Positions 121 to 51,546 of a DNA stretch of 64,000 nucleotides are shown here, piece after piece. The notes beneath the pieces were generated by a model that searched no databases, had not been told where the DNA came from, and saw only the letters and a list, made by a program, of their open reading frames with translations. Position numbers and translations under genes: made by a program. How positions within the stretch are numbered: the stretch's first letter is position 1; every line of letters starts with the position of its first letter. The stretch comes from an uncultured Lachnospiraceae bacterium (GTDB taxonomy: Bacteria; Bacillota; Clostridia; Lachnospirales; Lachnospiraceae), in assembly GCA_947176505.1 (NCBI GenBank), contig CAMWQW010000006.1, positions 1 to 64,000 of the forward strand, written 5' to 3'.

Positions 121-2994
121 ATTTGTCGGGGCATTATTATTATTCCCGGGAATCGTTGTTGTCGCAGTACTTCCTGCACTGCCGACATCTACCCCACCGC
201 CCGCGGACGTGCTCCCGCCGCTTGTTGTACTGTTATTTGACGTATTACTATTCGACGTATTACTATTTGACGTACTGTTGCTTGACGTGCTTCCGTTACC
301 TGTTGTATTGCTGCTTGATGCATTTCCGTTGCTTGGTACATTTCCGCTGTTTGTCGTATTACTGTCTGTTATCTCCCCTGCTGATATACCGCCGTTTGTC
401 GATACGTTGCCGCCTGTTGTATTGCCACCCGTTGCCGTGCTTCCGCCGCTTGTATTGCCGCCCGTTGCCGTGCTTCCGCCGCCGCTTGTATTGCCGCCCG
501 TTGCCGTGCTTCCGCCGCCGCTTGTATTGCCACCCGTTGTCGTGCTTCCGCCGATTCCATTATCATCTTGTTCCTCGTCCGTCGATGCCTTGCCTGTCAC
601 TCGTACGATAATCGGGAGATGCTCGACTTTATAGTAATTTTTCTCATCAGGATCATAAGATACATAAAAAGTATGTTCTCCGGGTTCCTCCAGCTTAGTC
701 TCTACACTGCTCTCCCATGCAAAGCCGTTGGGAAGTGTAATTTCTCCCAGTACAGTACCAGCCTTCACCTCAAATCCTTCCGGCATCTTACAGACCGGAA
801 CAGCTTTCGTCACGGTAAACTCAATATTTCTCGTGATAGCATTATACCTTGTCGTATCGGCAGGTGTATATGATGCAGGATAGGAAAAAGTCCCCGCCTC
901 AATCAGCGTATCTCCCTTCACCCATGTCCATCCGTCAGGCAGTGCAAAATCAGACAGTTTCAGTCCATCACGATACGTTCCCGGCGACAGAACAGGCGTT
1001 TTCACATTAGGATTCGTCTTGATTACCGTTACCGTACAGGTCGCAGTATTGGCGCCGCTTCTGGTACAGCTTATGGTGGCAGTGCCCGGCGAAACCGCCG
1101 TAACCTTTCCCTTACTGTCCACGGTTGCCACCGATGTATTACTGCTTGTAAAAGTCATGTCGCTGACGTAATCCACTTTCGATCCGTTCACATAGGGAAC
1201 TAACGTCACAGTCTTATCCACTTCCAGACTGCTTACCGTCGTCTTGTCAAAAGTAATGGAATCCGTTATCTCCGGCTTCGAGCATGCAGATGCCGGCATA
1301 TTAAGATACACCGGTATCTTGAACGTAAAACTGTTCTCCAATGCTCCCGCATTACTATATGCTCTGCGTACATTGGATGCTTCGGAAGATGGCGCCTGTA
1401 TATTCTGCATATATTGATGCGTATAGTTGGCGTACTTGCCGTTGGACACATTAAACTTTTGCAGGTACAGTGTATCCTGCCCTTTCATTATATAGTTTTC
1501 GCCTATCACCGCCGCACCGCCATTCAGTGACTTATACCGTGTGTCCCATCCCATTGCGACTGCCTTCTTTAAGCCGTTTACGATTTCTTCTAAGTTTGTT
1601 TTACCGGCTGCACTTACATTGAAATAATTATAATATCCTTCATATCCCGCATAAGTACCGGATATAATGGGTGAAGTTCCCTTAGTTCCCTGTTCCTGCA
1701 GCACTCTGGAAGCAAGATGGAATGGACTGATATTCAATCGCTGCCCTATTTCCGTAAAAGCCTGCGCGTAAGTCCGGCTGTCACCCGGAATCGCAGAAGC
1801 CATAAAAGAACTCTTAATAACTTCCTGTACGGCAGTCGTTGTGTGGTAAGACTCATTATATGTCAACTGTTCAAACTGAAAAATAGAAGAATCATTCAAG
1901 AAATTTCTCGGATCCATATAATATTTCAGTATCCCCTCAGAAGCATAACTCCACCCCTGCCCGTACACACCATTCTGCCAAGAACCGGAAGATGATGAAT
2001 GAATAAGACTCTTGTCACCTTTCTCGTTTGCAATGGCAGTATTCCAGTCCACTCCTGTATCCATCCTTACGAAAATCCAATTCGGATGCTTGTCCTTCAA
2101 GGCATAGAGCGCGTTCTGATAAGACGCCGGAAACTGATCCACGTCCGGATATCCCGCTGATGCTGCCATCACCATAGGAATCGATGAAAAATCAAGATAA
2201 GCGTTTTCCCAATCGATAAACTCTTCATCGGAAGTCGCCAGATATTCCTTCTCTATATACCCGACATATTCTTTCGCATTCCGGTACAAAAGCACCTGAT
2301 ACCAGACAGCTCCATATTCGTCCAATTCCACATCCGTAATCTGTACCGACTGTCCACTCGTCACCGTGCAGACTGCCGTACCGCCGTCAGAAGGGCTTTG
2401 CTTTACTTCGTACTTATCGCATAAATAGACAAGCGCCAGAATCGTTTTCTTCCCTGATATACCCTGTAGAGCGCTCTTTGCCCCTTTCAAATCGCTGATA
2501 ATATCATTCGACGCCGGAACCTCCACCGTAATAGATGGTAACACTACACTGTCTGCCGCCGTATCTGCGACGCCGTACATTGTGTCATCCCATTTCGGAT
2601 AGAAAGTATAGGATTCGAACTGTGTGGCATCAAAATCTTCTTTACACTCCCATGTAACCTCAAGTTCACTAGGCGCTTCTGCTCCCTCTGTCCAAATCCA
2701 AATCGTTTCAGGAAAGACACTAAGCAATTCCTCCAGACTTGGCTTATACATACACGGGAAATAAGCATCTTCCTCTGCAAGCGCTTCAAATCCCGTGATA
2801 TACTGCACCTCGCCGGCGATATCACCGCTTCCGTTTTCCGATATTGTATCCTGCACAGACGTCTGTCCTTCCTGTGCAGCCTTCTGTCCCATTTCTACCG
2901 CCATAGCCATGCACGGCTGTATCAATCCCATGATTACCGCCATCATACAGCATAAATATTTGATATAGCGCCTTGTACGACTGTCGTTTTTCAT
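1..2994 (-). CDS. secreted peptidoglycan hydrolase: GH73-like N-acetylglucosaminidase region plus SH3b, two Big_2-like Ig repeats and a G/S/T/N-rich tandem-repeat tail. N-terminus complete; C-terminus runs off the left edge
   Basis: I translated the minus frame myself from ATG at about 2994 (MKNDSRTRRYIKYLCCMMAVIMGLIQPCMAMA, signal-peptide-like). It reads without stops to position 1 and is absent from the ORF track because no stop lies in the window. Segments: SH3b-like GTAVCTVTSGQSVQITDVELDEYGAVWYQVLLY; glucosaminidase-like FHLASRVLQEQGTKG...GYYNYFN; Big_2-like TVSSLEVDKTVTLVPYVNGSKVDY...ATISCTRSGANTATCTVTV; then GGNTSGGGSTAT and SSQTGGNTTTTTPPANDTSN repeats. RBS-like GGAAGTGAAAGGA upstream. 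Confidence 0.6.
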   Translation of the reverse strand, partial: MKNDSRTRRYIKYLCCMMAVIMGLIQPCMAMAVEMGQKAAQEGQTSVQDTISENGSGDIAGEVQYITGFEALAEEDAYFPCMYKPSLEELLSVFPETIWIWTEGAEAPSELEVTWECKEDFDATQFESYTFYPKWDDTMYGVADTAADSVVLPSITVEVPASNDIISDLKGAKSALQGISGKKTILALVYLCDKYEVKQSPSDGGTAVCTVTSGQSVQITDVELDEYGAVWYQVLLYRNAKEYVGYIEKEYLATSDEEFIDWENAYLDFSSIPMVMAASAGYPDVDQFPASYQNALYALKDKHPNWIFVRMDTGVDWNTAIANEKGDKSLIHSSSSGSWQNGVYGQGWSYASEGILKYYMDPRNFLNDSSIFQFEQLTYNESYHTTTAVQEVIKSSFMASAIPGDSRTYAQAFTEIGQRLNISPFHLASRVLQEQGTKGTSPIISGTYAGYEGYYNYFNVSAAGKTNLEEIVNGLKKAVAMGWDTRYKSLNGGAAVIGENYIMKGQDTLYLQKFNVSNGKYANYTHQYMQNIQAPSSEASNVRRAYSNAGALENSFTFKIPVYLNMPASACSKPEITDSITFDKTTVSSLEVDKTVTLVPYVNGSKVDYVSDMTFTSSNTSVATVDSKGKVTAVSPGTATISCTRSGANTATCTVTVIKTNPNVKTPVLSPGTYRDGLKLSDFALPDGWTWVKGDTLIEAGTFSYPASYTPADTTRYNAITRNIEFTVTKAVPVCKMPEGFEVKAGTVLGEITLPNGFAWESSVETKLEEPGEHTFYVSYDPDEKNYYKVEHLPIIVRVTGKASTDEEQDDNGIGGSTTTGGNTSGGGSTATGGNTSGGGSTATGGNTSGGSTATGGNTTGGNVSTNGGISAGEITDSNTTNSGNVPSNGNASSSNTTGNGSTSSNSTSNSNTSNSNTSNNSTTSGGSTSAGGGVDVGSAGSTATTTIPGNNNNAPTNSNQTGGNTTTTTPPANDTSNSSQTGGNTTTTTPPANDTSN
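421..545 (-). repeat. about 39-bp imperfect tandem repeats (3-4 copies) coding for GGNTSGGGSTAT repeats in the hydrolase
   Basis: Reiterated gccgcccgttgccgtgcttccgccgc(cg)cttgtattgcc units. Confidence 0.7.
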
Positions 2995-3160
2995 CCGTGT
3001 CTAAAATCCTTTCACTTCCGTATAGTTTCCATAATGACAACAATTCACCATATTATGTCAACATAATTAATGTAACATTACACATGAGATTATGTCAACT
3101 ACATCATGTAAAAATATTTTAGAGAAAAATCTTTTTCAAGAATAATTGACATCCGCATAG
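2995..3160 (-). promoter_or_regulatory. upstream regulatory region of the hydrolase gene; holds two direct copies of TTGACATAAT (minus strand) 37 bp apart, each a possible -35 TTGACA
   Basis: Plus-strand attatgtcaac at about 3052-3062 and 3089-3099. No clean -10 at 17 bp, so the promoter assignment is tentative. Confidence 0.3.
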
Positions 3161-3200
3161 AAAAAACACCATCACCTATATTTCTATAAGTAATGGTGTC
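3161..3200 (-). terminator. putative rho-independent terminator after tsf
   Basis: Inverted repeat acaccat/atggtgt followed on the minus strand by a T-run (plus aaaaaa 3161-3166). The loop is long, so confidence is moderate. Confidence 0.35.
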
Positions 3201-3253
3201 TGCTATTTCGTTTGCTTTGCTACTTAAAACAATCGTGCAAAAAACCTAATGAG

Positions 3254-4189
3254 TTACATTCCCATCTGCTTTGCTACTTCTTCTGCAAAGTTCTCTTCCT
3301 TCTTCTCAAGACCTTCACCTGTCTCAAAACGAACAAATTTCTTAATGGAAAGATTTGCACCGTTCTCCTTTGCAACCTGCTCAAGATATTTCGCAACGCT
3401 CTGTTTGCCGTCCTCTGCCTTTACATATACCTGCTCTAACAGACATACTTCTTTCAACTCTTTGTTCAGACGACCGTTTACTGCGCCCTCAATTACCTTC
3501 TCCGGTTTACCTGCCATCTTAGGATCGTTCTTAATCTGCTCAGCGATAATCTCTTTCTCGTGTGCCTTATACTCCTCAGATACTTCCTCTGTAGATACAT
3601 ACTTAGGATACAATGCTGCAACCTGCATAGCGATATTATTCAGCGCTTCTTTCACCGCATCGTTAACTACGTCTGTAGCCGCCTCTACGATAACACCGAT
3701 TCTTCCACCGCCATGTACATAAGATACTGCACAGCCATCGTTGGCAACAACCTTCTCAAATCTTCTAATCGTAAGATTCTCACCGATTACCGCAATCTTA
3801 TCAACCAGTGCATCTTTTACTGTCTTAGAAGAATCTAAATGCCAGCTTTCTGCAAGGAAGGCATCCATATCTGCCGCTTCAGACTCCACTGCCTGTTTTG
3901 CAACCGCCTCCACATATGCCTGAAAATCAGCATTCTTAGCAACAAAATCTGTCTCGGAGTTAACTTCTACTACCGCTACTGTCTTGTCGTCTTTCACTGC
4001 TACACGGCATAGACCTTCCGCTGCAATTCTGCCGGCTTTCTTCTCTGCCTTCGCCTGTCCGTTCTTTCTCAAATATTCAACCGCTGCATCCATATCGCCA
4101 TCGGTCTCACCGAGAGCTTTCTTGCAATCCATCATACCTGCACCGGTCATTTCTCTTAACTCTTTTACCATTGCTGCTGTAATAGCCAT
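3254..4189 (-). CDS. tsf: elongation factor Ts
   Basis: 311 aa. MAITAAMVKELREMTGAGMMDCKKALGETDGDMDAAVEYLRKNG is a canonical EF-Ts N-terminus; AGGAGG RBS; lies downstream of rpsB as in most bacteria. Confidence 0.95.
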   Translation of the reverse strand: MAITAAMVKELREMTGAGMMDCKKALGETDGDMDAAVEYLRKNGQAKAEKKAGRIAAEGLCRVAVKDDKTVAVVEVNSETDFVAKNADFQAYVEAVAKQAVESEAADMDAFLAESWHLDSSKTVKDALVDKIAVIGENLTIRRFEKVVANDGCAVSYVHGGGRIGVIVEAATDVVNDAVKEALNNIAMQVAALYPKYVSTEEVSEEYKAHEKEIIAEQIKNDPKMAGKPEKVIEGAVNGRLNKELKEVCLLEQVYVKAEDGKQSVAKYLEQVAKENGANLSIKKFVRFETGEGLEKKEENFAEEVAKQMGM

Positions 4190-4276
4190 CTATCTTTCCT
4201 CCTGAATCATTCTAGTTTACCGTACTATCAATCCACCCATCGCTCTACACACGTTGACGCAGGCGCGGATATCAAA

Positions 4277-5023
4277 TTATTCGTTGACTTCGTCTGTCTC
4301 TGCAATTTTCTCAGCTTCAGCTTCCTCTACATATTCCTCAGCTCCCTGATTAGCTTCAATAACTGCATCTGCCATTTTGGCAACGATTAACTTAACGGCT
4401 CTGATCGCATCATCATTACCGGGAATGATATAATCCAGTTCTTCAGGATCGCAGTTTGTATCGCCGATACCGATCAGTGTAATACCAAGTGTATGCGCTT
4501 CTTGAACGCAGATTCTTTCTTTCTTAGGATCAACTACGAAAATACAATCCGGAATTCTTGTCATGTTCTTGATTCCGCCCAAGTTCTTCTCTAACTTTTC
4601 CCATTCTTTCTTAATCTGGATAACTTCTTTCTTAGGAAGCACATCGAATGTACCATCCTCTGACATTGTCTCTATCGCTTTCAGTCTGTCGATTCTGGAC
4701 TGAATCGTCTTGAAATTAGTGAGCATACCGCCCAGCCATCTCTCATTAACATAGTACATACCGCAGCGCTCTGCCTCTGTCTTAACAGCATCCTGCGCCT
4801 GTTTCTTCGTGCCGACAAACAGAATTGTTCCACCCTGTGATGCCACGTCAAATACTGCCTTGTAAGCCTCGTCAACCTTACCTACGGATTTCTGCAGGTC
4901 GATGATGTGGATACCGTTTCTTTCTGTAAAGATGTACGGAGCCATCTTAGGATTCCATCTTCTTGTCTGATGTCCAAAATGAACACCTGCTTCTAATAAC
5001 TGTTTCATTGAAATAACGCTCAT
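4277..5023 (-). CDS. rpsB: 30S ribosomal protein S2
   Basis: [32 protein letters not shown] is a canonical S2 N-terminus. The track ORF starts at a GTG 23 codons upstream (5092). I moved the start to the ATG preceded by GGAGGTAGAG, computed as 5092 minus 69. Confidence 0.93.
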
Positions 5024-5242
5024 GTCTCTACCTCCATTTGGTTGTTCTTCCATATGCCATGACCATGCTGCCACTTCCGCGCCTAGAAGCACCGGCAGTT
5101 ACAGGTGTACGCATACTCAAGATGCGACTACACTGACATATGTGATTACTTGGTTAATCATTTATGCTGTCTGCGGGCGTTACGGTTCAGCATATAATCT
5201 TCAACATAACACCAATGCACACACACTTAAATAGAATAGCAC

Positions 5243-5267
5243 AAAAAAACCCCTTTTGCAAGGGGTT
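5243..5267 (-). terminator. rho-independent terminator downstream of the 5277-6044 gene, upstream of the rpsB leader
   Basis: aacccctt-ttgc-aaggggtt hairpin followed on the minus strand by a U7 tract (plus aaaaaaa 5243-5249). Confidence 0.7.
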
Positions 5268-5276
5268 AATACATCT

Positions 5277-6044
5277 TTACTCCGCTCCTGTCACAATCCG
5301 GGCAATCTGCTCATCACTGGCATCTGCCGGAATCGAAAAAGTTCCCGTTCGCAGCCGTTTATCATAGCCATTCTGACAAAGAAACGTATCAAATGTCTCC
5401 GCCGAAGTTACTACGCCTACATCAGCCAGTTTTCTTGCCACCGTATAGGAACCGTCGCCGCTGTTAACTGTAATTGTCTTAACTGCCGCAGATGTGATAA
5501 TCTCGTTGGGATTCTCTTTCGGTTTATCATTCTCACGTTCTTGTTGTGTTGAACTTGGTTTTTCGTCATTCCTAACACTTGTTATATTTTCCGTATTCCC
5601 ATCATTCGCATCTGCTTCCTCATCTGTGTCTGTCGCCGTATCTGCATCTGTCTCCGTTTTATCCGTTCCCTCACCTGCTGCGGTATTCATATCCGCCTTT
5701 TCTTCAGTTTCGTTATCTGAATCCTCTCCGGTGTCTGCATCTACGTCCGTCTCGGTATCCTGCGCACCGTCCTCCGCCGTTTTTACCGATGGGTTTTGTT
5801 TCGTTTCTTCCGCATTTGATTGTTCGGCATCCTGCCTGCTTGTGCTGTCATCATCTGTGTTTTCTGCGGCGCTCTCGTCACCCGTGTCCGATAGAACCGT
5901 ATTCTCAACCATACCCAGTTCTTTTGCTCTGGCTATAATCTCTTCATCCGTCATGGTCTTATTTCCCGACAACGCTACACCCATAATAATTGCCGTCATC
6001 GCTATCCCAAGTCCAAGCCCGCGCAAATAATATTTCCGTTCCAT
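5277..6044 (-). CDS. membrane-anchored protein with a highly acidic D/E/T-rich linker and a C-terminal YceG/MltG-N-terminal-like domain
   Basis: 255 aa with an N-terminal TM (LGLGIAMTAIIMGVALSG). The C-terminus VKTITVNSGDGSYTVARKLADVGVVTSAETFDTFLCQNGYDKRLRTGTFSIP resembles the small N-terminal domain of YceG/MltG. Confidence 0.5.
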   Translation of the reverse strand: MERKYYLRGLGLGIAMTAIIMGVALSGNKTMTDEEIIARAKELGMVENTVLSDTGDESAAENTDDDSTSRQDAEQSNAEETKQNPSVKTAEDGAQDTETDVDADTGEDSDNETEEKADMNTAAGEGTDKTETDADTATDTDEEADANDGNTENITSVRNDEKPSSTQQERENDKPKENPNEIITSAAVKTITVNSGDGSYTVARKLADVGVVTSAETFDTFLCQNGYDKRLRTGTFSIPADASDEQIARIVTGAE

Positions 6045-42999: not shown

Positions 43000-45075
43000 C
43001 TATGATGTTTCCTTCGGCACATCCTTGATAAAGCCGCACTGCTCATCGGAGCACACAAGCTTATTTCCCTTCTGCAGCATAATAGCCCCGCATCTGTCAC
43101 ATTTGTCTGCTACCGGCTTCTGCCACACCATGAAATCACACTCGGGGTTGTCAATACATCCGTAATACTTTCTGCCTTTTTTCGTCTTTTTCAGCACAAT
43201 ATCTTTACCGCATTTTGGACATTCCACCCCGATCTTTTCAAAATAAGGTTTCGTATTACGGCAGTCCGGAAATCCCGGACACGCCAAGAACCTGCCGTGG
43301 GGACCGTACTTGATAACCATCTGTCTGCCGCATAAGTCACAGACTTCATCCGAAAGTTCATCCGCAATCTCCACCTCATCAAGCTCTTTCTCTGCCTTCT
43401 CTACCGCTTCCTCCAAATCCGGATAGAAATTTGCCACCACAGTTTTCCACTTGACGCTGCCCTCTTCCACACCGTCCAATAATGCTTCCATGGTCGCTGT
43501 AAAATTCACATCCACAATGGAAGGGAAAGCTTCTTTCATCATATTGTTGACTACTTCGCCCAGTTCCGTCACATAGAGATTCTTATTTTCTTTGACAATA
43601 TACCTTCTGGCAAGAATAGTGGTAATCGTAGGCGCATAAGTACTCGGACGCCCGATTCCCAGCTCTTCCATTGCCCGTACAAGAGATGCCTCCGTAAAGT
43701 GCGGAGCCGGCTGGGTAAAATGCTGTTTCTCATCCAGCCCCTGCAACAATAATTTCGTATCACGTGTTATCCCTTTCATAAGGGTATTGTTTTCTTCTTT
43801 CTCATCATCCTCGGTATATACGCTCATAAATCCGTCAAATTTCACTTTAGACGCCGCTACCGTAAAACGCTGTCCGGCAGCATCAATCTTCACCGAAGTT
43901 GTCTCATACAAAGCTGATGCCATACGGCTTGCTACAAATCTTTTCCAAATCAACTGATAAAGTCTGAATTGATCTCTGGAAAGGGAATCTTTCATTTCCA
44001 ACGGAGTCCTGCTGATATCAGTAGGACGAATCGCCTCATGGGCATCCTGAATCTTCTGCTTGCTTCCTCTCTCCTGCTCCGTTGCAGCAGCATATTCGAC
44101 GCCATAATTCTCCGAAACATATGCTTTGGCAGCCCTCTCTGCTTCCTCAGACACACGGGTCGAATCCGTACGCAGATATGTGATGATACCTACCGTACCG
44201 TTGCCCTTAATGTCAATGCCCTCATACAGCTGCTGCGCAAGACGCATTGTCTTCTGTGTAGAAAAATTCAGTACTTTACTTGCCTCCTGCTGCAGCGTAG
44301 AAGTCGTAAACGGCAGCGGCGCTTTCTTCACTCTCTCACCGTTTTTCACGGAAGATACCTGATACTGCGCATGTTCCAGCGAACGCTTAACCGCCTCCAG
44401 TTCTTCCTTGGATGAGATTGTCTTCTTCTCTTCTACTGTACCGTAATACTTTGCCGTAAGTGGTTTCTTCTCTCCTTCAACCGCAAAAGAAGCATCCAGC
44501 GTCCAATACTCTTCCGGAATAAAAGCATTGATTTCGTCCTCTCTGTCGCAGATAATACGCAACGCCACAGACTGAACCCGCCCGGCACTCAAGCCTCTCT
44601 TGACCTTCGCCCACAATACCGGTGATATCTTATACCCCACCATACGGTCCAGACACCGGCGTGCCTGCTGTGCATCCACCAGATCCATATTAATCTCTCT
44701 GGCATGTTTCAAAGATTCCTTCACCGCCGTTTTGGTAATCTCATTAAAAGTAATACGGTATACTTTCTTATTCTCCAATTTCAAAGCCGCGAGCAGGTGC
44801 CACGAAATAGCTTCCCCCTCACGGTCGGGGTCTGTTGCGAGATATACTTTATCCGCTTTCTTTACTTCCTTACGCAGATTCGCAAGAATATCGCCTTTGC
44901 CCCTGATGGTAATGTATTTCGGTTCAAAATCATGCTCCACATCAATTCCAAGCACACTGCGAGGCAAATCCCGCACATGTCCGTTACTGGCAGCGACTTC
45001 ATAATTTGTTCCCAGAAACTTCTTGATCGTCTTCACCTTAGCCGGTGATTCCACGATTACCAAATATTTTGCCAT
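43000..45075 (-). CDS. topA: DNA topoisomerase I
   Basis: 691 aa; Toprim (LVIVESPAKVKTIKKFLG), catalytic Tyr region and three C-terminal Cys4 zinc ribbons. Confidence 0.95.
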   Translation of the reverse strand: MAKYLVIVESPAKVKTIKKFLGTNYEVAASNGHVRDLPRSVLGIDVEHDFEPKYITIRGKGDILANLRKEVKKADKVYLATDPDREGEAISWHLLAALKLENKKVYRITFNEITKTAVKESLKHAREINMDLVDAQQARRCLDRMVGYKISPVLWAKVKRGLSAGRVQSVALRIICDREDEINAFIPEEYWTLDASFAVEGEKKPLTAKYYGTVEEKKTISSKEELEAVKRSLEHAQYQVSSVKNGERVKKAPLPFTTSTLQQEASKVLNFSTQKTMRLAQQLYEGIDIKGNGTVGIITYLRTDSTRVSEEAERAAKAYVSENYGVEYAAATEQERGSKQKIQDAHEAIRPTDISRTPLEMKDSLSRDQFRLYQLIWKRFVASRMASALYETTSVKIDAAGQRFTVAASKVKFDGFMSVYTEDDEKEENNTLMKGITRDTKLLLQGLDEKQHFTQPAPHFTEASLVRAMEELGIGRPSTYAPTITTILARRYIVKENKNLYVTELGEVVNNMMKEAFPSIVDVNFTATMEALLDGVEEGSVKWKTVVANFYPDLEEAVEKAEKELDEVEIADELSDEVCDLCGRQMVIKYGPHGRFLACPGFPDCRNTKPYFEKIGVECPKCGKDIVLKKTKKGRKYYGCIDNPECDFMVWQKPVADKCDRCGAIMLQKGNKLVCSDEQCGFIKDVPKETS

Positions 45076-45118
45076 AGCCTATTCCCCTGTTTCTCTAATC
45101 GGTTATTCAACGTGAATC

Positions 45119-45147
45119 ACTATACACCAATTTTTTTATGCTTGCAA
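45119..45147 (-). promoter_or_regulatory. sigma-A promoter of topA (TTGCAA-17-TGtATAGT)
   Basis: Minus strand cctcTTGCAAgcataaaaaaattggtgTATAGTgattcacg. Confidence 0.5.
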
Positions 45148-45197
45148 GAGGTAAAAAATTAAAAATATATTAATAGATATATAGAATAAACACAAAA

Positions 45198-45233
45198 AAG
45201 AACCTCCGACCGTAAATCAGAGGCTCTTTCTAC
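45198..45233 (-). repeat. copy 2 of a 36-bp perfect direct repeat; on the minus strand it forms a 9-bp stem hairpin (with G-U pairs) plus a U6 tract, i.e. a terminator-like element
   Basis: aagaacctccgaccgtaaatcagaggctctttctac is identical to 46016-46051; minus-strand RNA AGAGCCUCU-loop-GGAGGUUCU-UUUUUU. Confidence 0.6.
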
Positions 45234-45262
45234 CTATTCATGATTTGTATATAGTACATATT

Positions 45263-45532
45263 CTAAATTCTGTCACCCCGACCTTGATGCGGATGCTTCG
45301 TAGCATAGTCTACAGCTTCACTGCTAATTTCCTCCAAACTCATGTTCTCAAAGTACTCCCTTCTCCAGACCGTATAATTAAAACTTTCTCTTTTAATTGC
45401 AGCAATAAAACGTTCTGCATTAATGACACCAAGTGCATCAACCAAACATGCGAAACCTTTATCCATTATGTCAATTGTGTTATCCATTATCCTGCACCTC
45501 CCATCTTCTGATGAATTCCCCCGGTGTAACAA
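45263..45532 (-). CDS. small hypothetical protein overlapping the 3' end of the PIN-like gene (possible toxin-antitoxin partner)
   Basis: 89-aa ORF; FACLVDALGVINAERFIAAIKRESFNYTVWRREYFENMSLEEI; no family recognised. Confidence 0.3.
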   Translation of the reverse strand: MLHRGNSSEDGRCRIMDNTIDIMDKGFACLVDALGVINAERFIAAIKRESFNYTVWRREYFENMSLEEISSEAVDYATKHPHQGRGDRI

Positions 45533-45931
45533 TTTGAATCTTCGGCGACTGATATTTTAGCAGTCTATCGTCTGTTGTTATAAAAAAATCACACGATGCC
45601 AAAACGGCACACGCTACATGAAGTGCATCCATGTCTTTAGTGCCTGACTGCATAATCTCTTTTGCAATTTCAATCGTTTCCTCATTTCTATCATCACTGA
45701 CATAAAATGATTCATTCATATTCATAAACTCTGAAATAGCTTGCCGCTTATGCAAAAATCTATTCTTAGAATTTTCATAATCGAGCACATAGGATGTCCA
45801 AGTTTCAGTCTGTTATCTTTTATCATTTCCTGAATATGCAGCTTTGCTTCTGTCTCTAAATGTATCCTAATCTGTGTTTGGTCATCATATGGACGGTTAT
45901 AGCTACAATTATCTAAATAGACTCTCATCAA
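45480..45931 (-). pseudogene. PIN-domain (VapC-like) gene disrupted by a frameshift
   Basis: N-terminal PIN segment MMRVYLDNCSYNRPYDDQTQIRIHLETEAKLHIQEM is in one frame (45722-45931). The C-terminal PIN segment ...DMDALHVACAVLASCDFFITTDDRLLKY is in another frame (45480-45788). The two frames overlap around 45770-45790. Confidence 0.5.
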
Positions 45932-46015
45932 CCCATTCCTTCTTACATATAATTAAATCAGCCAGATATCGTTTCTCTTCGGATTTTCATCATAACATAA
46001 AGGCAATAGATAGTA

Positions 46016-46051
46016 AAGAACCTCCGACCGTAAATCAGAGGCTCTTTCTAC
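46016..46051 (-). repeat. copy 1 of the 36-bp direct repeat, 45 nt downstream of the 1811-aa gene stop (operon-end hairpin; weaker U-tract)
   Basis: Identical 36-mer to 45198-45233. Confidence 0.6.
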
Positions 46052-46095
46052 TTATTTAATAGTATTTCAATTTCACTGATTGCAAAGACAGTCCA

Positions 46096-49000
46096 TCACT
46101 CGAGCAGGAACAATCTGGCACGATTCAACGATACCGTTCCAAATCCATCTATCTTGTACGTCTTTCCGTTTCTGATAAACTCAGACTCTACGAGAACAAA
46201 GATTCCCGCATTGTTGGTCTTGTCATCCGTAAGGCTCCTAAGTGAAACCACCGGTGCTTTAATCCGGTATACTTTACCCGGAAGTAAACCTATCTGGTCA
46301 GGATTCTGCGGGTCAGCCGCTGTCACAGGTACAAGCTTATTATCTGTAACCGTCCAGATTTCCGAACCGAACGGCGTCGCTTTAACAGTCTTGTCACCGA
46401 TGACAAACTCCTGCGTTCCGGCATCATCCTCATAATAGAAGCTGACCGTCACATTCTTGTTTGCTCCGATATTGCTATCTGCAAACTTAAAGTATACATC
46501 CACGGTATTGTCCAGAATTCCCTCGGTGTCATCGTCCGCCGTGTCTCTCCACTCCTGATCAAAGGGAACGGCAATGCTCTTCATCGGTGCGGAATTCTGC
46601 GCAAATCCGGACACAATAGCGACGTCCGAACCGTGTACGCCCGCACTGTACGCTGCCATAAGCGCATTGACAAAGAACTTACATTCGTCAACTCCCATTG
46701 CATTAGCAGCCACCTCACCTTCGCCGTATATGTATGGATATTCCGACTGCGCCAAATAGACCACATTGCCCTTACTGTAGCAATAATAGTTGTTCCGGGC
46801 GTCTTTTGGTGAAATACCGTATGCCGTATCTCTATTTCCGCCAAAGGTAAGCCATGTTGTTACATAAGCTTCTGTATACTCGCTCTTTAAGTTATTCTCA
46901 AAATTCAGCAGATACTCGGAAGCTCGCAGTCCTGTTCCGTTCTCAGCCATTTTCTCCGCAAAGGCAAAAGAATTGCCCGTCATCTCATACGGATAGTAAA
47001 GGATACTTCCTTCATTAATTTTATCCGCCCTTATTCCCGCACGCCGAGGTTCGTACATGCCCGCATTCAAACCTGCATATCTATGATACTGATTTGCCGC
47101 TCCCAAGCTGACAAAAGTTCTTCCTGAAGACCAGCCTAAACTCTCCGTCGCAAGTCCCGCGCTGTTGCCGCTCTTATTCTGACTGCATACGAGCAGACTC
47201 CTGCCCTCATTGATGTAATCGGCAAACGCCACACTATCCACAGTAACACCGTCATCCACAGTCAACACTACAACATCCCACAGATTCAGGTACTTAGGGT
47301 TCTTAGTTAAATTATCAGCTAATTCTTCAGGCGTAACCGTTTCAAATTCAAAAGCGAGATGTGAACTCGACTCCGCGTCTTTGAGTAATCTTGCCAGCAG
47401 AGAGTCATCCTTCTTCTTGTACATCGCTTCCAAATCAATATAATAGTCGCCTTTACTCTTTGTCACCTGCAGCACACGTATCTCTTCTTCATAAGAGCTG
47501 ACCAGTTCAAAATAGCCCTGCACGCTGGCTCGTCTGTATGGATTGCCACTATCCGTTACTTCTAACTTCCAAGGAATGATACCCGGACCCATACCGTTAA
47601 TCGTGACATCAATGACGTTGCCTTCATTGACATAGGCGCCGAATTCTTCGCCAAGCTCCTCCTCCGTACCGAAGATACCGTCATAATTCATATCTGCATA
47701 TAAGTGCATGGTTGTATCGCCGAAATAATCTTCGCCTCTGTTATTCTTAATCTGAAAAGCAATCCTGCCATGGTATTCTTCATTTTCATCCAAGACAAGC
47801 CGCTGCACCATGCTCACTCCGGAACCGCTGTCCGCGTCCTCGTTCACCAACTCAATCCGCGGCTTGGAAGTCTTCATTCTAGCCATAAATCCGGCATTCG
47901 ACATCGTATCCGATACGGTAAAAATACTGTCCTTATATTCTTCAACGGAAACCGCAGCCAACAGGAAATTATACATCACCGTATCTTCGGCAACATACTT
48001 CGTATTAATCGTATCTCTTGACGCGCCGCGGGCTGTTGCATCCGTGAAAAAGTCATTTTCAACCACGATCGGATATCCTGCCCGAAGATACTCTAACAAA
48101 TCCATCATCTTCTGCGATGTAATATCGTTGCTGTCATAACGGCTGTCACCAGTTACATCACCTAAATGATATACTTTACCATTCAATGACTCATCATTAT
48201 AAACCGCTCTTCTTGGCTGTCTGTCACCCAGATTCAGATTCTGCCCGTCAAGACCGATAAATATCATATCATAAGCGCCGTTAACATCTTCCCACTCACC
48301 GTTAAATTCCACTACGGATTTCACGTCTGTAGAAATGCCAAACTGCTTCTTGCTGTATAGAATCTGTTTACCCGTCTTCATGGCATCTGTCTTCCAGACA
48401 AGCTTTGTGTTCCCTTTGCTGTCCTCCTCTGTATGCAAATCGGAGATGATGGCTCCTGAAGTAAGATCAATGTTCGCCGTAGGCTGCAATTCCAGAATCG
48501 TCAGGTCATCAAATTCTCCCATAATACCTACGGAAAAATTAATGATATACTGAATCGCTCTGGCTTTGCTGACCTCAAAGGAAATTTGGTCATACTCCGC
48601 CAACGTAGTATTTTCTGCTTCAATCGCTGCTAATACATCACTGAATCCGGCTTTTGCCTTGAAATCGTCAAAAAACGCCGCAAAGTCATCACTGACAAGC
48701 ATTTCGTCATTAATGATATATATATTTTGGTTTACATAATTGTATCCATTGTCATCCTTATCCGGATAATCATCAGCCTTTAGCGTCATTTCTATGTTAG
48801 CCATCAAATCCGTGCCCGTATTGATAGCCTCAAAATAACCTGCCAAATCACGCTTTAATAACGCCTGCGCCAATAACTGATAATTCGTTCCGGCATATTT
48901 GTCAGTATCTGTCTCCTCCGCAATCGCGTAATCTACAATAATCGGTGTCAGCTCATCAGCCGCGCGGCTTAAAATTGCACTAACTATCCCCTCTCCCATG

Positions 49001-51516
49001 TCATTCGCGTCACCTAAAGGCGAATCGCCTTCAACATGCTGAATATAGCTGACCGATAATGACGGATTAAGAAACATATTCTGTCCGCTTTCCAGATAGA
49101 TTAAATCTGCCGCATTCACCATATCGGATGTCACTTCATCGGCTCTCACTGTCTGTACTTCAATCTGAAAAGCACTGTTCGCATTATCTCCGCCTGCAAG
49201 CGAACTGAATACATACTGCTTCAACCAGTTATTGGTTGTCTGACATCTGAAATAAACCGGCGCATTATAGACTCCTATCACCAAGTCGCTGTCTTTGCCT
49301 GTCTCAGCCAATTTGTAGTTACCTAAGCCGGGACCGACGTAGATAAATGTCGAATCAGGTGTCAATGTGGTGCTAAACAGACTGATTCCGTCTTCCGTCT
49401 CCGCCATATCTTCATTCAACATATAATCAGTAGACATGATATCATCTGCCCCGGCAAGTTCAGCCAGCTCATCGTCTGTCATCCGCTCAAACGAAAGCAC
49501 ATAGTACATCGTACCGCTCTCTTCGGAAGGCTCCTCTGTCTGAAGTGTATCATCCGTCGATGGCGTATTTGTATCACCTGTCGATGGCGCATTTGTGTCA
49601 TCCGTCGATGGCGTATTTGTGTCATCTGTCGATGGTGCATTTGTGTCATCTGTCGGTGGTGTGCTCGTATCATCCGTTGATGGTGTATTTATATCGGGTG
49701 TTGGCTGTTCTGGTGTCTGCGGCGGTTGTTCTGATGTTGATGTATCATCATCGGGTGTCTCCATATCAGAATCCGTTGGTGTACCTGCCACTAATCTTCT
49801 CCACTCACCTGCAAACACTGTGTTCTTGCTTAGGTCCAACAAAACTGCATCAGACATCACGCCGACGGAACTCGTCTCCGGTGCTGGTTGTGTTGGATCC
49901 GACTGTTCCGGCTGTTCTGGTGTTGGCGGCTGTTCTGGTGTTGGCGGTTGCTCTGGTGTTTCTGTACCGCTTCCCGGATTTTGCCCATCCCCCGGATTTG
50001 CAGGATCAATATCCGGAATAATCGGATTTATATCTGGCTGCTCCGTCGTACCATTATTGTCATTGTTATCATTGTTATCATTATTGTTATTATCATTACT
50101 ACTGTTATTATTATTGCTGTCATTGCTCGAATTGTCTACCCAGTCCTTAAAAACCTCACCGACCGTTCCCTGATAAACGTATCTGTCATCACTTTCATCA
50201 TATGTATAGATATCAAGCTCGTCAGAATAACCATTCGGTCCATTCATTGCATTGATTTCACTACTCACGGAAGCCTTATATGCAGGAGTGCCTTCCGGCA
50301 TGTTAGCATATTCTTCCAATGTTATCGCGTAAAATTTACCATTATCTTCATTATAAAAATAGACGAATCTTCCCAACGCTCCCGGGTTTTTCAAGGTTGA
50401 GCTTTTCTGTCCGCTGGACCAGACGAAATCATATCCTGCCTTGTCTTCTCCATCAACATATTTAAGGTAGGTGCCGCGGAAAATCCCGTCCGCCATATCA
50501 GCTTTATTGTTGCCGGATGTAATCTGATAAGTATCGTCTACCGTCACTTCCTGATTCGGAAACAACAGAGTCCAGCCATCCGCCTCCGCAACATTATGTA
50601 CTCCAAGATAAGCTTCTTTATACTGAATTCCCGGAAATGATGTAAATGAGGACTCCGGCACTAACAAGTTGAGAAAATCTTCTCTGCTCGCATAATGACG
50701 GAAAACCGGATTGCTCTTATATGCCTCTGCCAAATCATCCGCAAACGGAGCTTTTCCGCCTGCCAGATACCCCATTGAACCCGTAGTAAAAGAAAACCTT
50801 GTAGGGCTTGTATCCCCTGAACCTGTCGTACCGCCCGAACCAGCCGGCGCGTCGCAATACACTTCAGATGGAACAATATCCAGTATCTTATACGGATTAT
50901 CTTCTCCATGGTCTTCTACAATCTTGCCGATTCCCGCAAAAGATTCTTTCGCCATGGCTTCCGCCGGACGTAGATGTTGTACAACAGGATAAACTACTAT
51001 CGTCACCGCAAGAAGCATTGCGACACCGGACGCCGCCTTCTTCCACTTTTTTCTCTTTGAACCGAGAATAGGCTTCTCGTTGGTACTCTCAAGCATATAC
51101 TCGGGAATCTCGCCTTTTTTAATCTGTTCAATCTCTTTTTCTTTGGCAAGCGCTTCCCAATCCAGCTCCCCGGGATTAATTTTCCGGTGCTTTATGTGCG
51201 AAATAATCTGTGCTCTGGAAGCGTCCGCGCTCTTGAGCGATACAGATTCGTTCGCCGCCATATCAGATTCTTGCAATAAATCTGGTTTCTCCGGAGTATC
51301 AGACAACTTCGTATAATCGGACTCATTGAGGGTATCAGACGTTTTAGGAGCAGCAGCCTTCTCTGCCCCTTCATCATCTGCACGTTTTCTGCCCTTGTAT
51401 CTCAAGATACCAAAAACTCCCGTCGCCACTGCTGCAATCGAAGCGATTACAATAAGAACAATGTTTCTATTTTGTTTTTTCTTATTCCTTTTTATGCCTC
51501 TTCTCTTCTTTTTCAT
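46096..51516 (-). CDS. giant membrane-anchored protein of unknown function (about 1806 aa) with PT-rich and N/D-rich low-complexity linkers
   Basis: Continuous ORF. Start MKKKRRGIKRNKKK 5 codons inside the track's TTG start. Hydrophobic segments IVLIVIASIAAVATGVFGIL and AASGVAMLLAVTIVVYPVV. Linker runs NNNNSSNDNNNNDNNDNNDNN, PEQPPTPEQPPTPEQPEQ and (T/S)DDTN(A/T)PS x6. Recurring D-hhhh-xx-G-Q-N motifs (DMIFIGLDGQNLNLG, DLIYLESGQNMFLNPS, DVVVLTVDDGVTVDS). Confidence 0.6.
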   Translation of the reverse strand: MKKKRRGIKRNKKKQNRNIVLIVIASIAAVATGVFGILRYKGRKRADDEGAEKAAAPKTSDTLNESDYTKLSDTPEKPDLLQESDMAANESVSLKSADASRAQIISHIKHRKINPGELDWEALAKEKEIEQIKKGEIPEYMLESTNEKPILGSKRKKWKKAASGVAMLLAVTIVVYPVVQHLRPAEAMAKESFAGIGKIVEDHGEDNPYKILDIVPSEVYCDAPAGSGGTTGSGDTSPTRFSFTTGSMGYLAGGKAPFADDLAEAYKSNPVFRHYASREDFLNLLVPESSFTSFPGIQYKEAYLGVHNVAEADGWTLLFPNQEVTVDDTYQITSGNNKADMADGIFRGTYLKYVDGEDKAGYDFVWSSGQKSSTLKNPGALGRFVYFYNEDNGKFYAITLEEYANMPEGTPAYKASVSSEINAMNGPNGYSDELDIYTYDESDDRYVYQGTVGEVFKDWVDNSSNDSNNNNSSNDNNNNDNNDNNDNNGTTEQPDINPIIPDIDPANPGDGQNPGSGTETPEQPPTPEQPPTPEQPEQSDPTQPAPETSSVGVMSDAVLLDLSKNTVFAGEWRRLVAGTPTDSDMETPDDDTSTSEQPPQTPEQPTPDINTPSTDDTSTPPTDDTNAPSTDDTNTPSTDDTNAPSTGDTNTPSTDDTLQTEEPSEESGTMYYVLSFERMTDDELAELAGADDIMSTDYMLNEDMAETEDGISLFSTTLTPDSTFIYVGPGLGNYKLAETGKDSDLVIGVYNAPVYFRCQTTNNWLKQYVFSSLAGGDNANSAFQIEVQTVRADEVTSDMVNAADLIYLESGQNMFLNPSLSVSYIQHVEGDSPLGDANDMGEGIVSAILSRAADELTPIIVDYAIAEETDTDKYAGTNYQLLAQALLKRDLAGYFEAINTGTDLMANIEMTLKADDYPDKDDNGYNYVNQNIYIINDEMLVSDDFAAFFDDFKAKAGFSDVLAAIEAENTTLAEYDQISFEVSKARAIQYIINFSVGIMGEFDDLTILELQPTANIDLTSGAIISDLHTEEDSKGNTKLVWKTDAMKTGKQILYSKKQFGISTDVKSVVEFNGEWEDVNGAYDMIFIGLDGQNLNLGDRQPRRAVYNDESLNGKVYHLGDVTGDSRYDSNDITSQKMMDLLEYLRAGYPIVVENDFFTDATARGASRDTINTKYVAEDTVMYNFLLAAVSVEEYKDSIFTVSDTMSNAGFMARMKTSKPRIELVNEDADSGSGVSMVQRLVLDENEEYHGRIAFQIKNNRGEDYFGDTTMHLYADMNYDGIFGTEEELGEEFGAYVNEGNVIDVTINGMGPGIIPWKLEVTDSGNPYRRASVQGYFELVSSYEEEIRVLQVTKSKGDYYIDLEAMYKKKDDSLLARLLKDAESSSHLAFEFETVTPEELADNLTKNPKYLNLWDVVVLTVDDGVTVDSVAFADYINEGRSLLVCSQNKSGNSAGLATESLGWSSGRTFVSLGAANQYHRYAGLNAGMYEPRRAGIRADKINEGSILYYPYEMTGNSFAFAEKMAENGTGLRASEYLLNFENNLKSEYTEAYVTTWLTFGGNRDTAYGISPKDARNNYYCYSKGNVVYLAQSEYPYIYGEGEVAANAMGVDECKFFVNALMAAYSAGVHGSDVAIVSGFAQNSAPMKSIAVPFDQEWRDTADDDTEGILDNTVDVYFKFADSNIGANKNVTVSFYYEDDAGTQEFVIGDKTVKATPFGSEIWTVTDNKLVPVTAADPQNPDQIGLLPGKVYRIKAPVVSLRSLTDDKTNNAGIFVLVESEFIRNGKTYKIDGFGTVSLNRARLFLLE
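49545..49700 (-). repeat. 24-bp in-frame tandem repeats (about 6 copies) encoding (T/S)DDTN(A/T)PS
   Basis: tcatccgtcgatggcgtatttgtg-type units reiterated with point variants. Confidence 0.8.
49890..50140 (-). repeat. 18-bp repeats encoding PEQPPT x3, and AAT/GAT-rich microsatellite-like repeats encoding the N/D/S run
   Basis: ggctgttctggtgttggc x3 at about 49900-49955; attgttatcattgttatcattattgttattatc at about 50040-50140. Confidence 0.75.
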
Positions 51517-51546
51517 AATTAATCGCCCCAATACTTGCTTAAAAGA

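Follow-up and report, generated by a model that had tools for sequence, protein, structure and literature searches.

A duplicated terminator-like hairpin around a PIN-type toxin–antitoxin-like cassette between a pilus operon and topA in a narrow Lachnospiraceae clade

In a stretch of 64,000 nucleotides from an uncultured Lachnospiraceae bacterium (hereafter, the window), two near-identical copies of a hairpin-forming sequence enclose two small genes located between a type IV pilus operon and topA. How did the same hairpin come to stand on both sides of these genes, and does it belong to the enclosed unit or to the site in which the unit resides? The initial annotation, made from the letters of the sequence, regarded the enclosed DNA as a degenerate PIN-type toxin–antitoxin-like cassette inserted by recombination at or with a terminator and, as an alternative, considered the repeat to be a duplicated attachment-like site. 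Here, we describe the repeat and the genes between its copies, compare orthologous sites in related genomes and weigh the histories that could have produced this arrangement.

The repeat pair and the genes it encloses

All genes around the cassette lie on the minus strand. In the order of the coding strand, the locus consists of the last gene of the type IV pilus operon (46096–51531; 1811 aa, DUF5057, from ORF and Pfam analysis), repeat copy A (46015–46056), a predicted cassette promoter, the PIN gene, a 74-aa gene, repeat copy B (45197–45238), a predicted topA promoter and topA itself (43000–45075; 691 aa, from Pfam and gene calls). The upstream genes of the pilus operon have Pfam matches to N_methyl pilin motifs, PilM and prepilin peptidase, and topA is followed by codY and then by a flagellar/chemotaxis operon. 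The cassette promoter (45989–46017), which is predicted by a promoter scan and alignment, consists of TTTACT, a 17-nt spacer and an extended −10 element, TG-n-TATGAT, and is conserved in three relatives (L002, L003 and L006). The topA promoter predicted by the same kind of scan (45119–45147; TTGCAA, 17 nt, TATAGT) is conserved at sites with and without the cassette. No relationship is seen between the promoter that follows copy A and the one that follows copy B.

The perfect direct repeat of 36 bp described in the initial annotation is real and slightly longer than reported. Identity is perfect over 37 nt (45197–45233 and 46015–46051) and, with a single mismatch, extends over 42 nt (41/42 identical; 45197–45238 and 46015–46056), leaving a spacer of 776 bp (45239–46014) between the two copies. 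No third copy with up to three mismatches was found in the 64-kb window, which contains only these two, with none expected from 100 shuffles. On the minus, that is, coding strand, the repeat forms a 15–17-bp hairpin with free energies of −24.5 and −26 kcal/mol (z scores of −4.8 and −6.8), whereas the same repeat folds poorly on the plus strand (−10 and −13 kcal/mol) because two of the stem pairs are G-U. In a terminator pattern scan, each copy was scored as terminator-like on the minus strand, in agreement with the original placement of a terminator-like hairpin on the coding strand, after the 1811-aa gene and again upstream of the topA promoter.

Both copies display the features of an intrinsic terminator, namely, on the transcribed strand, a stem-loop containing G+C and, behind it, a U tract. 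Copy A, identified by repeat search, folding and terminator scan, is the hairpin at which the pilus transcript would end (stem at about 46047–46015); its U tract is truncated by the predicted cassette promoter (TTCTTTACT), whose −35 box shares bases with the 3′ end of this copy. Copy B, the hairpin at the end of the putative cassette transcript, has a complete U tract (TTCTTTTTTGTGTTT), which continues to about 45185 and is followed by the native downstream flank. The tails used in the terminator test were TTTTTTGTGTTT for copy B and the shortened TTTACTATCT for copy A. Taken together, these features suggest that transcription terminates at both hairpins. A permissive Rfam search of positions 44500–46600 yielded only a chance match to a snoRNA.

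The initial annotation doubted that the two copies are independent terminators, and rightly so: they are a single duplicated sequence, identical at 41 of 42 positions and covarying between species, and an independent origin was therefore rejected. Across 10 hairpin copies, all 13 stem pairs are kept (100% of 130 cells) and the seven that vary do so compatibly, six via G-U only and one from A-U to G-C, in a small sample of related sequences for which the shuffle control is weak (48/500). Given that this variation is mediated by G-U pairs, as for an RNA terminator, it points to selection on the coding-strand RNA hairpin. We also considered a DNA-level operator palindrome for the antitoxin and rejected it, because G-U pairs amount to an imperfect palindrome in DNA and the variation tracks RNA pairing.

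The PIN (VapC-like) gene (45480–45928, from ORFs and alignments) is split in the window into ORFs of 69 aa and 102 aa, and alignment with three orthologues traces the frameshift to a single T missing between positions 45799 and 45798. The T is present in L189, a 968-bp conspecific contig from another sample, which is about 99% identical at the nucleotide level over the cassette and both hairpins and encodes an intact PIN protein of 149 aa. The description of the cassette as degenerate thus did not hold, and the defect in the window would be either one strain-specific deletion or an assembly error. All genomes compared here are MAGs or metagenome contigs, in which a frameshift may be an assembly error and assemblers may collapse or homogenise repeats.

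With the frameshift repaired, the PIN sequence has 1252 homologues, most of them from Lachnospiraceae metagenomes and nearly all of 147–149 aa. Its match to the Pfam family PF01850 (19.4 bits; E = 0.0017) is below the gathering cut-off of 23.6, and a few of the homologues have a precomputed match to this family; the PGAP label on the homologues is ‘PIN domain-containing protein’. The AlphaFold2 model of an intact, 92%-identical orthologue (P0001) has a pLDDT of 91, and its top Foldseek matches in the PDB are VapC toxins (3zvk, 6sd6, 5ecw and others; probability 1.0, TM-score of about 0.55–0.6), indicating that the predicted structure has the Rossmann-like α/β/α sandwich of the PIN fold. Residues D6, E52, D101 and D120 (P0001 numbering), which we take from the PIN literature, rather than from a superposition, to be the active-site residues, are invariant in 22 homologues.

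The second gene, delineated with the help of gene calls in relatives, starts with an ATG at 45487, runs to 45263 and encodes a 74-aa partner, presumably the antitoxin; the overlap with the PIN stop codon amounts to 8 nt, here and in the gene calls of all relatives. The 89-aa ORF listed in the initial annotation corresponds to this frame when translation is taken to begin at a TTG further upstream. Thus, the original inventory of the spacer, a PIN gene and an overlapping ORF, is retained with a length of 776 rather than 780 bp, a partner of 74 rather than 89 aa and the addition of a promoter. The partner has no convincing family match in Pfam, and searches with both proteins against NCBIfam, PADLOC, PHROGs and PDB sequences gave no convincing match; the partner is modelled as a four-helix protein with low confidence (pLDDT 66), too weak for a fold search. 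In a tblastn survey, a match to the partner adjoins the PIN gene in 98 of the 99 loci, so the pair has the adjacent small partner conserved with the toxin that is typical of type II toxin–antitoxin systems. In one case, on a plasmid of the cyanobacterium Planktothrix, the pair is located inside a type I restriction-modification operon. Viral contigs contain only one distant relative of the PIN protein and, therefore, the cassette does not appear to be phage-associated. Overall, the module is best described as a PIN-type toxin–antitoxin-like pair with reversed gene order; judging from the sequences, its products probably act as toxin and antitoxin, and the predicted promoters are probably functional.

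Filled and empty sites in related genomes

Exact-protein look-ups of the closest PIN homologues yielded a set of relatives in which the orthologous site is filled. In L002, L003–5 and L006–8, the order is pilus gene, hairpin, PIN gene, 74-aa gene, hairpin and topA, and all of these cassettes are intact, with PIN proteins of 147–149 aa whose identities to that of the window (tblastn) are 91%, 79% and 76%, respectively. Each filled relative has its own pair of flanking hairpins, and the aligned junctions are identical across all filled genomes. Two copies are present in L001, L002, L003, L004, L006, L007, L008 and L189, which are independent assemblies covering several species and samples, and a scan of TopA in representative genomes restricts the presence of the cassette at this junction to a narrow clade.

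Look-ups of the closest TopA proteins uncovered empty sites, namely, in L179, the closest relative of the window (TopA 98% identical in aa and 92% in nt), and in L180–L188, a sister species that is abundant in the mouse gut (TopA 95% in aa). In these genomes, the pilus gene is followed by one hairpin copy and the topA promoter, with no cassette; on the left, the hairpin has the flank of copy A (ATACTATTAAATAAGTAGAAAG) and, on the right, that of copy B (TTTTTTG...TATATATTTTTAATTTTTTACCTCTTGCAAGC), that is, the outer flanks of the two copies are joined. Hence, the empty site with a single repeat copy that the initial annotation proposed to look for does exist, and the cassette is not conserved intact in all relatives. 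The only outgroup in which the pilus gene lies beside topA, L019, contains one terminator, the stem of which could not be aligned.

The initial annotation further proposed to check whether the 36-mer is a multicopy intergenic repeat, which is not the case in the DNA covered. Apart from the two copies in 64 kb, a relaxed hairpin pattern was not found outside this locus in 1.46 Mb (the window and 190 related loci), and a dispersed repeat family was rejected for this reason; an exact-stem pattern scan of GTDB representative genomes, a set that excludes the source species, gave 0 matches. In L191/L192, a cassette is located in a different operon; its PIN protein (76%) is as diverged from that of the window as the one in L006, and this cassette has no hairpin and no flanking repeat. 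Given that the hairpin is confined to the pilus–topA locus in these 1.46 Mb and the L191 cassette is free of it, the hairpin belongs to the host site and is not carried along by the cassette.

To place gain and loss in order, we relied on a tree from nucleotide identities of two genes, topA and the 3′ end of the pilus gene, with the topology ((((window, L179), L180/183), L002), (L003, L006)) and L019 outside. The cassettes of L002, L003 and L006 are 85%, 78% and 78% identical to that of the window at the nucleotide level, and those of L003 and L006 are 85% identical to each other; flank identities to the window are 84–85% for topA and 73–79% for the pilus-gene 3′ end. For the same pairs of genomes, the cassette values fall between those of topA and of the pilus gene. 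This correspondence between the divergence of the cassette and that of its flanks suggests that the cassette has been inherited vertically. The notion of an inserted cassette therefore stands inasmuch as this is a discrete unit for which empty sites exist, but the insertion is not recent, because relatives with flanks of only 73–85% nucleotide identity carry the intact unit at this very site. As filled genomes bracket the empty ones, the empty sites are best read as precise losses. The simplest history would place the cassette in the ancestor of the clade, with one gain followed by at least two precise losses between the repeats, the choice of two losses over several gains being a parsimony argument on a two-gene tree. 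Three independent gains at an identical junction are much less likely, and the empty sites could also have arisen via homologous replacement from cassette-less relatives.

The two hairpin copies resemble each other more within a genome than either resembles its counterpart in other species. In the 39-nt core, copies A and B differ at one position in the window, one in L002, four in L003 and one in L006, compared to 5–8 differences between orthologous copies A and 5–11 between orthologous copies B. Had the copies evolved independently since a duplication that preceded speciation, the A–B distances should be equal to or larger than the orthologous distances. The opposite relationship, along with two further observations, suggests gene conversion, which probably keeps the copies alike within a genome. 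Copy A of L002 has gained 10 nt of the B-type U tract, and L003 and L004, which encode the same PIN protein, contrast in that the copies differ at four positions in the former and are identical (37/37) in the latter. Repeats of 40 nt are at the lower limit of efficient homologous recombination for gene conversion, and shared selection could contribute to the similarity of the copies.

A proposed history and its alternatives

The reading that we favour, with a probability of about 0.68, is that of a vertically held module residing behind a duplicated host terminator, with the copies of the terminator homogenised by gene conversion and the cassette lost between the repeats in some lineages. The module, comprising its own promoter, a gene for a VapC-like PIN nuclease and the overlapping gene for the presumed 74-aa antitoxin, would have arrived in the common ancestor of the clade, in a core region of the chromosome and directly behind the intrinsic terminator of the pilus operon, leaving about 40 nt of host sequence with the terminator hairpin on both sides. 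Duplication of the host terminator upon insertion is suggested by L191 and the empty sites, and might have occurred by Campbell-type integration, in which a circle with the same short segment already on it enters via a single crossover, or through repair of staggered breaks around the extruded hairpin. Copy A would still end the pilus transcript, its last bases now serving as the −35 box of the cassette promoter, and copy B would end the cassette transcript, retaining the original U tract with the topA promoter behind it. With a host terminator on both sides, the pilus operon, the cassette and topA would therefore keep their own transcription boundaries, each unit remaining insulated. Gene conversion would hold the pair near-identical in each genome as the pair drifts between species, and recombination or replication slippage between the repeats would delete the cassette precisely, leaving one hairpin, as may have happened in at least two sister lineages. 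In the window, the module might have been freshly inactivated by the one-base deletion or else be misassembled at this position. The locus would then provide a natural filled/empty example of a small selfish or defence-type module in the core chromosome with undisturbed neighbours, in which the same repeats make the insertion reversible and evolve in concert.

The same family was surveyed for flanking repeats by comparing 450 nt upstream with 500 nt downstream of the PIN/partner pair at 99 loci. At most of these loci, there is no flanking repeat; the 99th-percentile score of unmatched flanks was 14, and among random pseudo-cassettes in Lachnospiraceae loci, 1 of 600 reached a score of 21. About nine independent contexts of roughly 70, including the window clade, have flanking direct repeats with scores of 21–110, and this enrichment over the 1/600 control suggests that the pattern is not a one-off. 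For instance, L088–92, a type of site that is abundant, have a 51-nt repeat with an unrelated hairpin, again with TTTACT next to it, and in L114, a hairpin of 33–46 nt occurs three times, separating the PIN cassette from a Phd/Doc-like cassette. The repeat consists of a terminator-like motif and a promoter-like motif in L124/125, of the 3′ end of the upstream ORF and a hairpin in L151 (69 nt), and of a G+C-rich terminator in L159 (54 nt). L109 is an array with repeats of about 130–200 nt, L175 has the PIN/partner family between 127-nt attC-like repeats and, in L174, the repeats are integrase-coding fragments. The hairpin-type repeats end directly past the stem or the T tract, their start lies about 0–40 nt ahead of the stem, and the duplication measures 42 nt in the window and 27–69 nt at the other hairpin-repeat loci. 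The hairpin sequences at different loci are unrelated.

These observations bear on the possibility, implicit in the attachment-like site of the initial annotation, that the hairpins are attC-, dif- or att-like recombination sites used by a recombinase encoded elsewhere to insert and excise the cassette. The excision precise to one copy, the recurrence of long flanking repeats in about 9 of roughly 70 contexts versus 1/600 controls, the three hairpins that separate two toxin–antitoxin cassettes in L114 and the occurrence of the family between attC-like repeats (L175) and beside integrase fragments (L174) all fit such a process. We nevertheless consider it unlikely, given that a Pfam scan of the 28 large ORFs of the window returned no recombinase or transposase family, and that the hairpin, at 37–42 nt, has neither RYYYAAC/GTTRRRY boxes nor extrahelical bases. 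Moreover, the hairpins are unrelated between loci, with a 5′ repeat limit that varies from about 0 to about 40 nt, the stem varies via G-U on the coding strand as expected of an RNA terminator under selection, and homologous recombination or slippage between 40-nt repeats yields precise loss without any enzyme. A Xer/dif-like site in particular was rejected on account of the G+C-rich arms of the hairpin, the direct orientation of the two copies and a sequence unlike dif. Nor does the unit fit a transposon with target-site duplication, for which a short duplication of fixed length, terminal inverted repeats and a transposase are expected: the duplication is 42 nt here and 27–69 nt elsewhere, no inverted repeats were found at the cassette ends, and the scanned ORFs include no transposase.

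Somewhat less probable still is a history in which the empty sites are ancestral and the cassette was gained separately, or spread by flank recombination, in the window lineage, L002 and L003/L006. Its presence is indeed patchy on the tree, with the closest relative of the window being empty, and toxin–antitoxin modules are known to move horizontally. However, the junctions are identical in all filled genomes, the divergence of the cassette mirrors that of the flanks pair by pair, and the hairpin pair follows the host tree. Very improbable, in our estimate, is that the hairpins are part of a mobile unit, like the subterminal hairpins of IS200/IS605-type non-autonomous elements, which was inserted as hairpin–cassette–hairpin. 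Although the same hairpin is found on the same strand at both ends, with TTAC directly after copy A, the empty sites keep one hairpin in exactly its native place, together with the original U tract and promoter, a family member of similar divergence is present elsewhere without hairpins (L191), no further copies were found in 1.46 Mb, and there is no TnpA-like gene among the ORFs scanned. The least probable explanation is that the duplicated hairpin, the frameshift or both are assembly artefacts. The source is a MAG, and short repeats are prone to misassembly, but the two-copy architecture is found in independent assemblies of several species, with copies that have distinct, conserved flanks; this recurrence covers the two-copy layout only, so that the frameshift alone could still be an error.

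Taken by itself, the window feature is modest and mostly explained, a fairly ordinary gain/loss unit. A much broader generalisation, which we regard as doubtful, would be that, in Lachnospiraceae and related Clostridia, small accessory cassettes generally dock and are exchanged at terminator hairpins. Such cassettes would enter with duplication of the hairpin, exit as one-copy circles and occasionally form short arrays (L114), as a counterpart of the PeSLs of phages that either is independent of recombinases or employs an unknown one. Were terminator hairpins such preferred points of entry and exit, they would matter for the turnover of accessory genes in gut Firmicutes and, with more speculation, for the question of how integron cassettes came to be bounded by hairpins; in that event, the L175-type occurrence could make the PIN/partner family a model for the origin of hairpin-ended cassettes of the integron type.

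Comparison with known systems

In its gene content, the module is close to type II toxin–antitoxin systems of the VapBC (PIN) type, with which it shares the small overlapping two-gene operon, a predicted fold matching VapC, four conserved acidic residues, a patchy distribution across genomic contexts and an own promoter, as predicted for the window cassette. Unlike in typical VapBC modules, the order in the window is reversed, the PIN gene preceding that of the small partner; no antitoxin family matches the partner, and the PIN protein scores below the PF01850 threshold.

As a transcription unit, the cassette is comparable to phage ‘morons’ and to engineered insertions, which are independent promoter–gene–terminator units placed between two host units, with a terminator on each side providing insulation. 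Our literature search for natural terminator duplication around inserted genes returned an engineered example only, in which a terminator was placed on each side of the insertion (PMC8880864, Methods). However, these are a descriptive class and a deliberate design, respectively, and imply neither duplication of a host terminator nor concerted evolution of its copies.

Integron cassettes are similarly discrete and lie between similar, imperfectly palindromic direct repeats; they include CALINs, which are attC clusters lacking an integrase (Cury et al., 2016; PMC4889954), and toxin–antitoxin cassettes with their own promoters are typical residents of integrons (PMC13108822). Relatives of the window module are indeed found between attC-like repeats (L175). 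By contrast, attC sites measure 57–141 nt and have RYYYAAC and GTTRRRY cores and extrahelical bases, whereas the window repeat measures 37–42 nt, its sequence AAAGAAC...GTTCTTT is at odds with these cores, and its stem has no bulges. Furthermore, the window contains one cassette at one locus only, with no recombinase family among the 28 ORFs scanned and with a repeat that looks like a functional RNA terminator.

The closest parallel for the repeats comes from the PeSL (promoter-early stem-loop) cassettes of T4-type phages, in which terminator stem-loops, sometimes overlapping a −35 box, flank small accessory genes, and homologous recombination between neighbouring copies produces insertions and deletions among close relatives and can release mini-circles with one copy; the PeSL family counts about 50 copies per phage genome and includes a conserved promoter (Arbiol et al., 2010, PMC2839356; Comeau et al., 2014, PMC4122927). 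Likewise, the window has a stem-loop on both sides of a small unit, with insertions and deletions between close relatives, and its copy A overlaps the −35 box. Unlike PeSLs, the window repeats comprise only the hairpin, present exactly twice and without a shared promoter, on a bacterial core chromosome, and no circle was observed. Two of the other loci, L124 with its repeat of terminator and promoter-like motif and L114 with its three hairpins, are closer to the phage cassettes than the window is. Overall, the unit belongs to neither the PeSL nor the integron class, and its repeat architecture is closest to that of the PeSL cassettes.

Hairpin copies around the pilus-gene/topA cassette

In the window, the cassette between the pilus gene and topA, composed of a VapC-like PIN gene and an overlapping partner gene, lies between two near-identical terminator hairpins, copies A and B. 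In L002, a relative from the same clade with an intact cassette at this junction, copy A (2530-2550) carries 10 additional nucleotides, CTTTTTTTGA, matching copy B's U tract; they resemble a conversion tract extending beyond the usual repeat boundary. Two further such relatives, L003 and L004, encode identical PIN proteins but differ when the hairpin copies within each contig are compared (4889-5714): those of L004 are identical (37/37), whereas those of L003 differ at four positions, in part compensatory within the stem. Either homogenisation is polymorphic within the species or the contrast is caused by the assembler.

Overlap with the cassette and hairpin is also seen for two plus-strand ORFs of the window (45245-45511, 88 aa, and 45874-46059, 61 aa), which are probably spurious; gene calls in the relatives provide no support for either.

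The pilus-gene/topA junction is also variable among more distant relatives. L012 carries a different, 1.2-kb insert (3808-4925) with broken minus-strand ORFs, which may resemble Rpn/YhgA-like nuclease genes, and in L013 (1644-5000), comM-like and dprA-like genes are located ahead of topA.

Repeat-flanked relatives at other loci

Direct repeats also accompany the PIN/partner family in other contexts. The L114 array (2912-4395), preceded by a gene for a 517-aa secreted protein, contains three hairpin copies of 33-46 nt, starting at 2912, 3671 and 4350, which set apart two cassettes, one PIN/75-aa and the other Phd/Doc-like, each with its own promoter-like sequence. L109 (1-5857) harbours at least five repeat copies of ~130-200 nt, spaced by 0.8-2.2 kb around the PIN cassette and its neighbours. 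In L088, an abundant Schaedlerella-type locus, a 51-nt direct repeat containing an unrelated hairpin brackets the cassette (3818-4759); given the split eutH and the fragments of a PDDEXK_9-family gene, this region resembles a decaying hotspot.

Restriction-modification and integron-type settings

On a Planktothrix agardhii plasmid (NZ_LR882945.1, 7534-8170), a type I restriction-modification operon contains a PIN gene (43% identity) and its small downstream partner between hsdS and hsdR. In a termite-gut contig, L175, the pair (54-1099) is flanked on both sides by 127-nt attC-like repeats (GCTAACAAG...GACGTTAGAC), and in L174 (119-1317) the pair is flanked by a 46-nt repeat that codes for box II of tyrosine recombinases (motif YDIRTIQELLGHSDV). 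Judging from these two repeats, the PIN/partner family appears to circulate also as integron-type cassettes.
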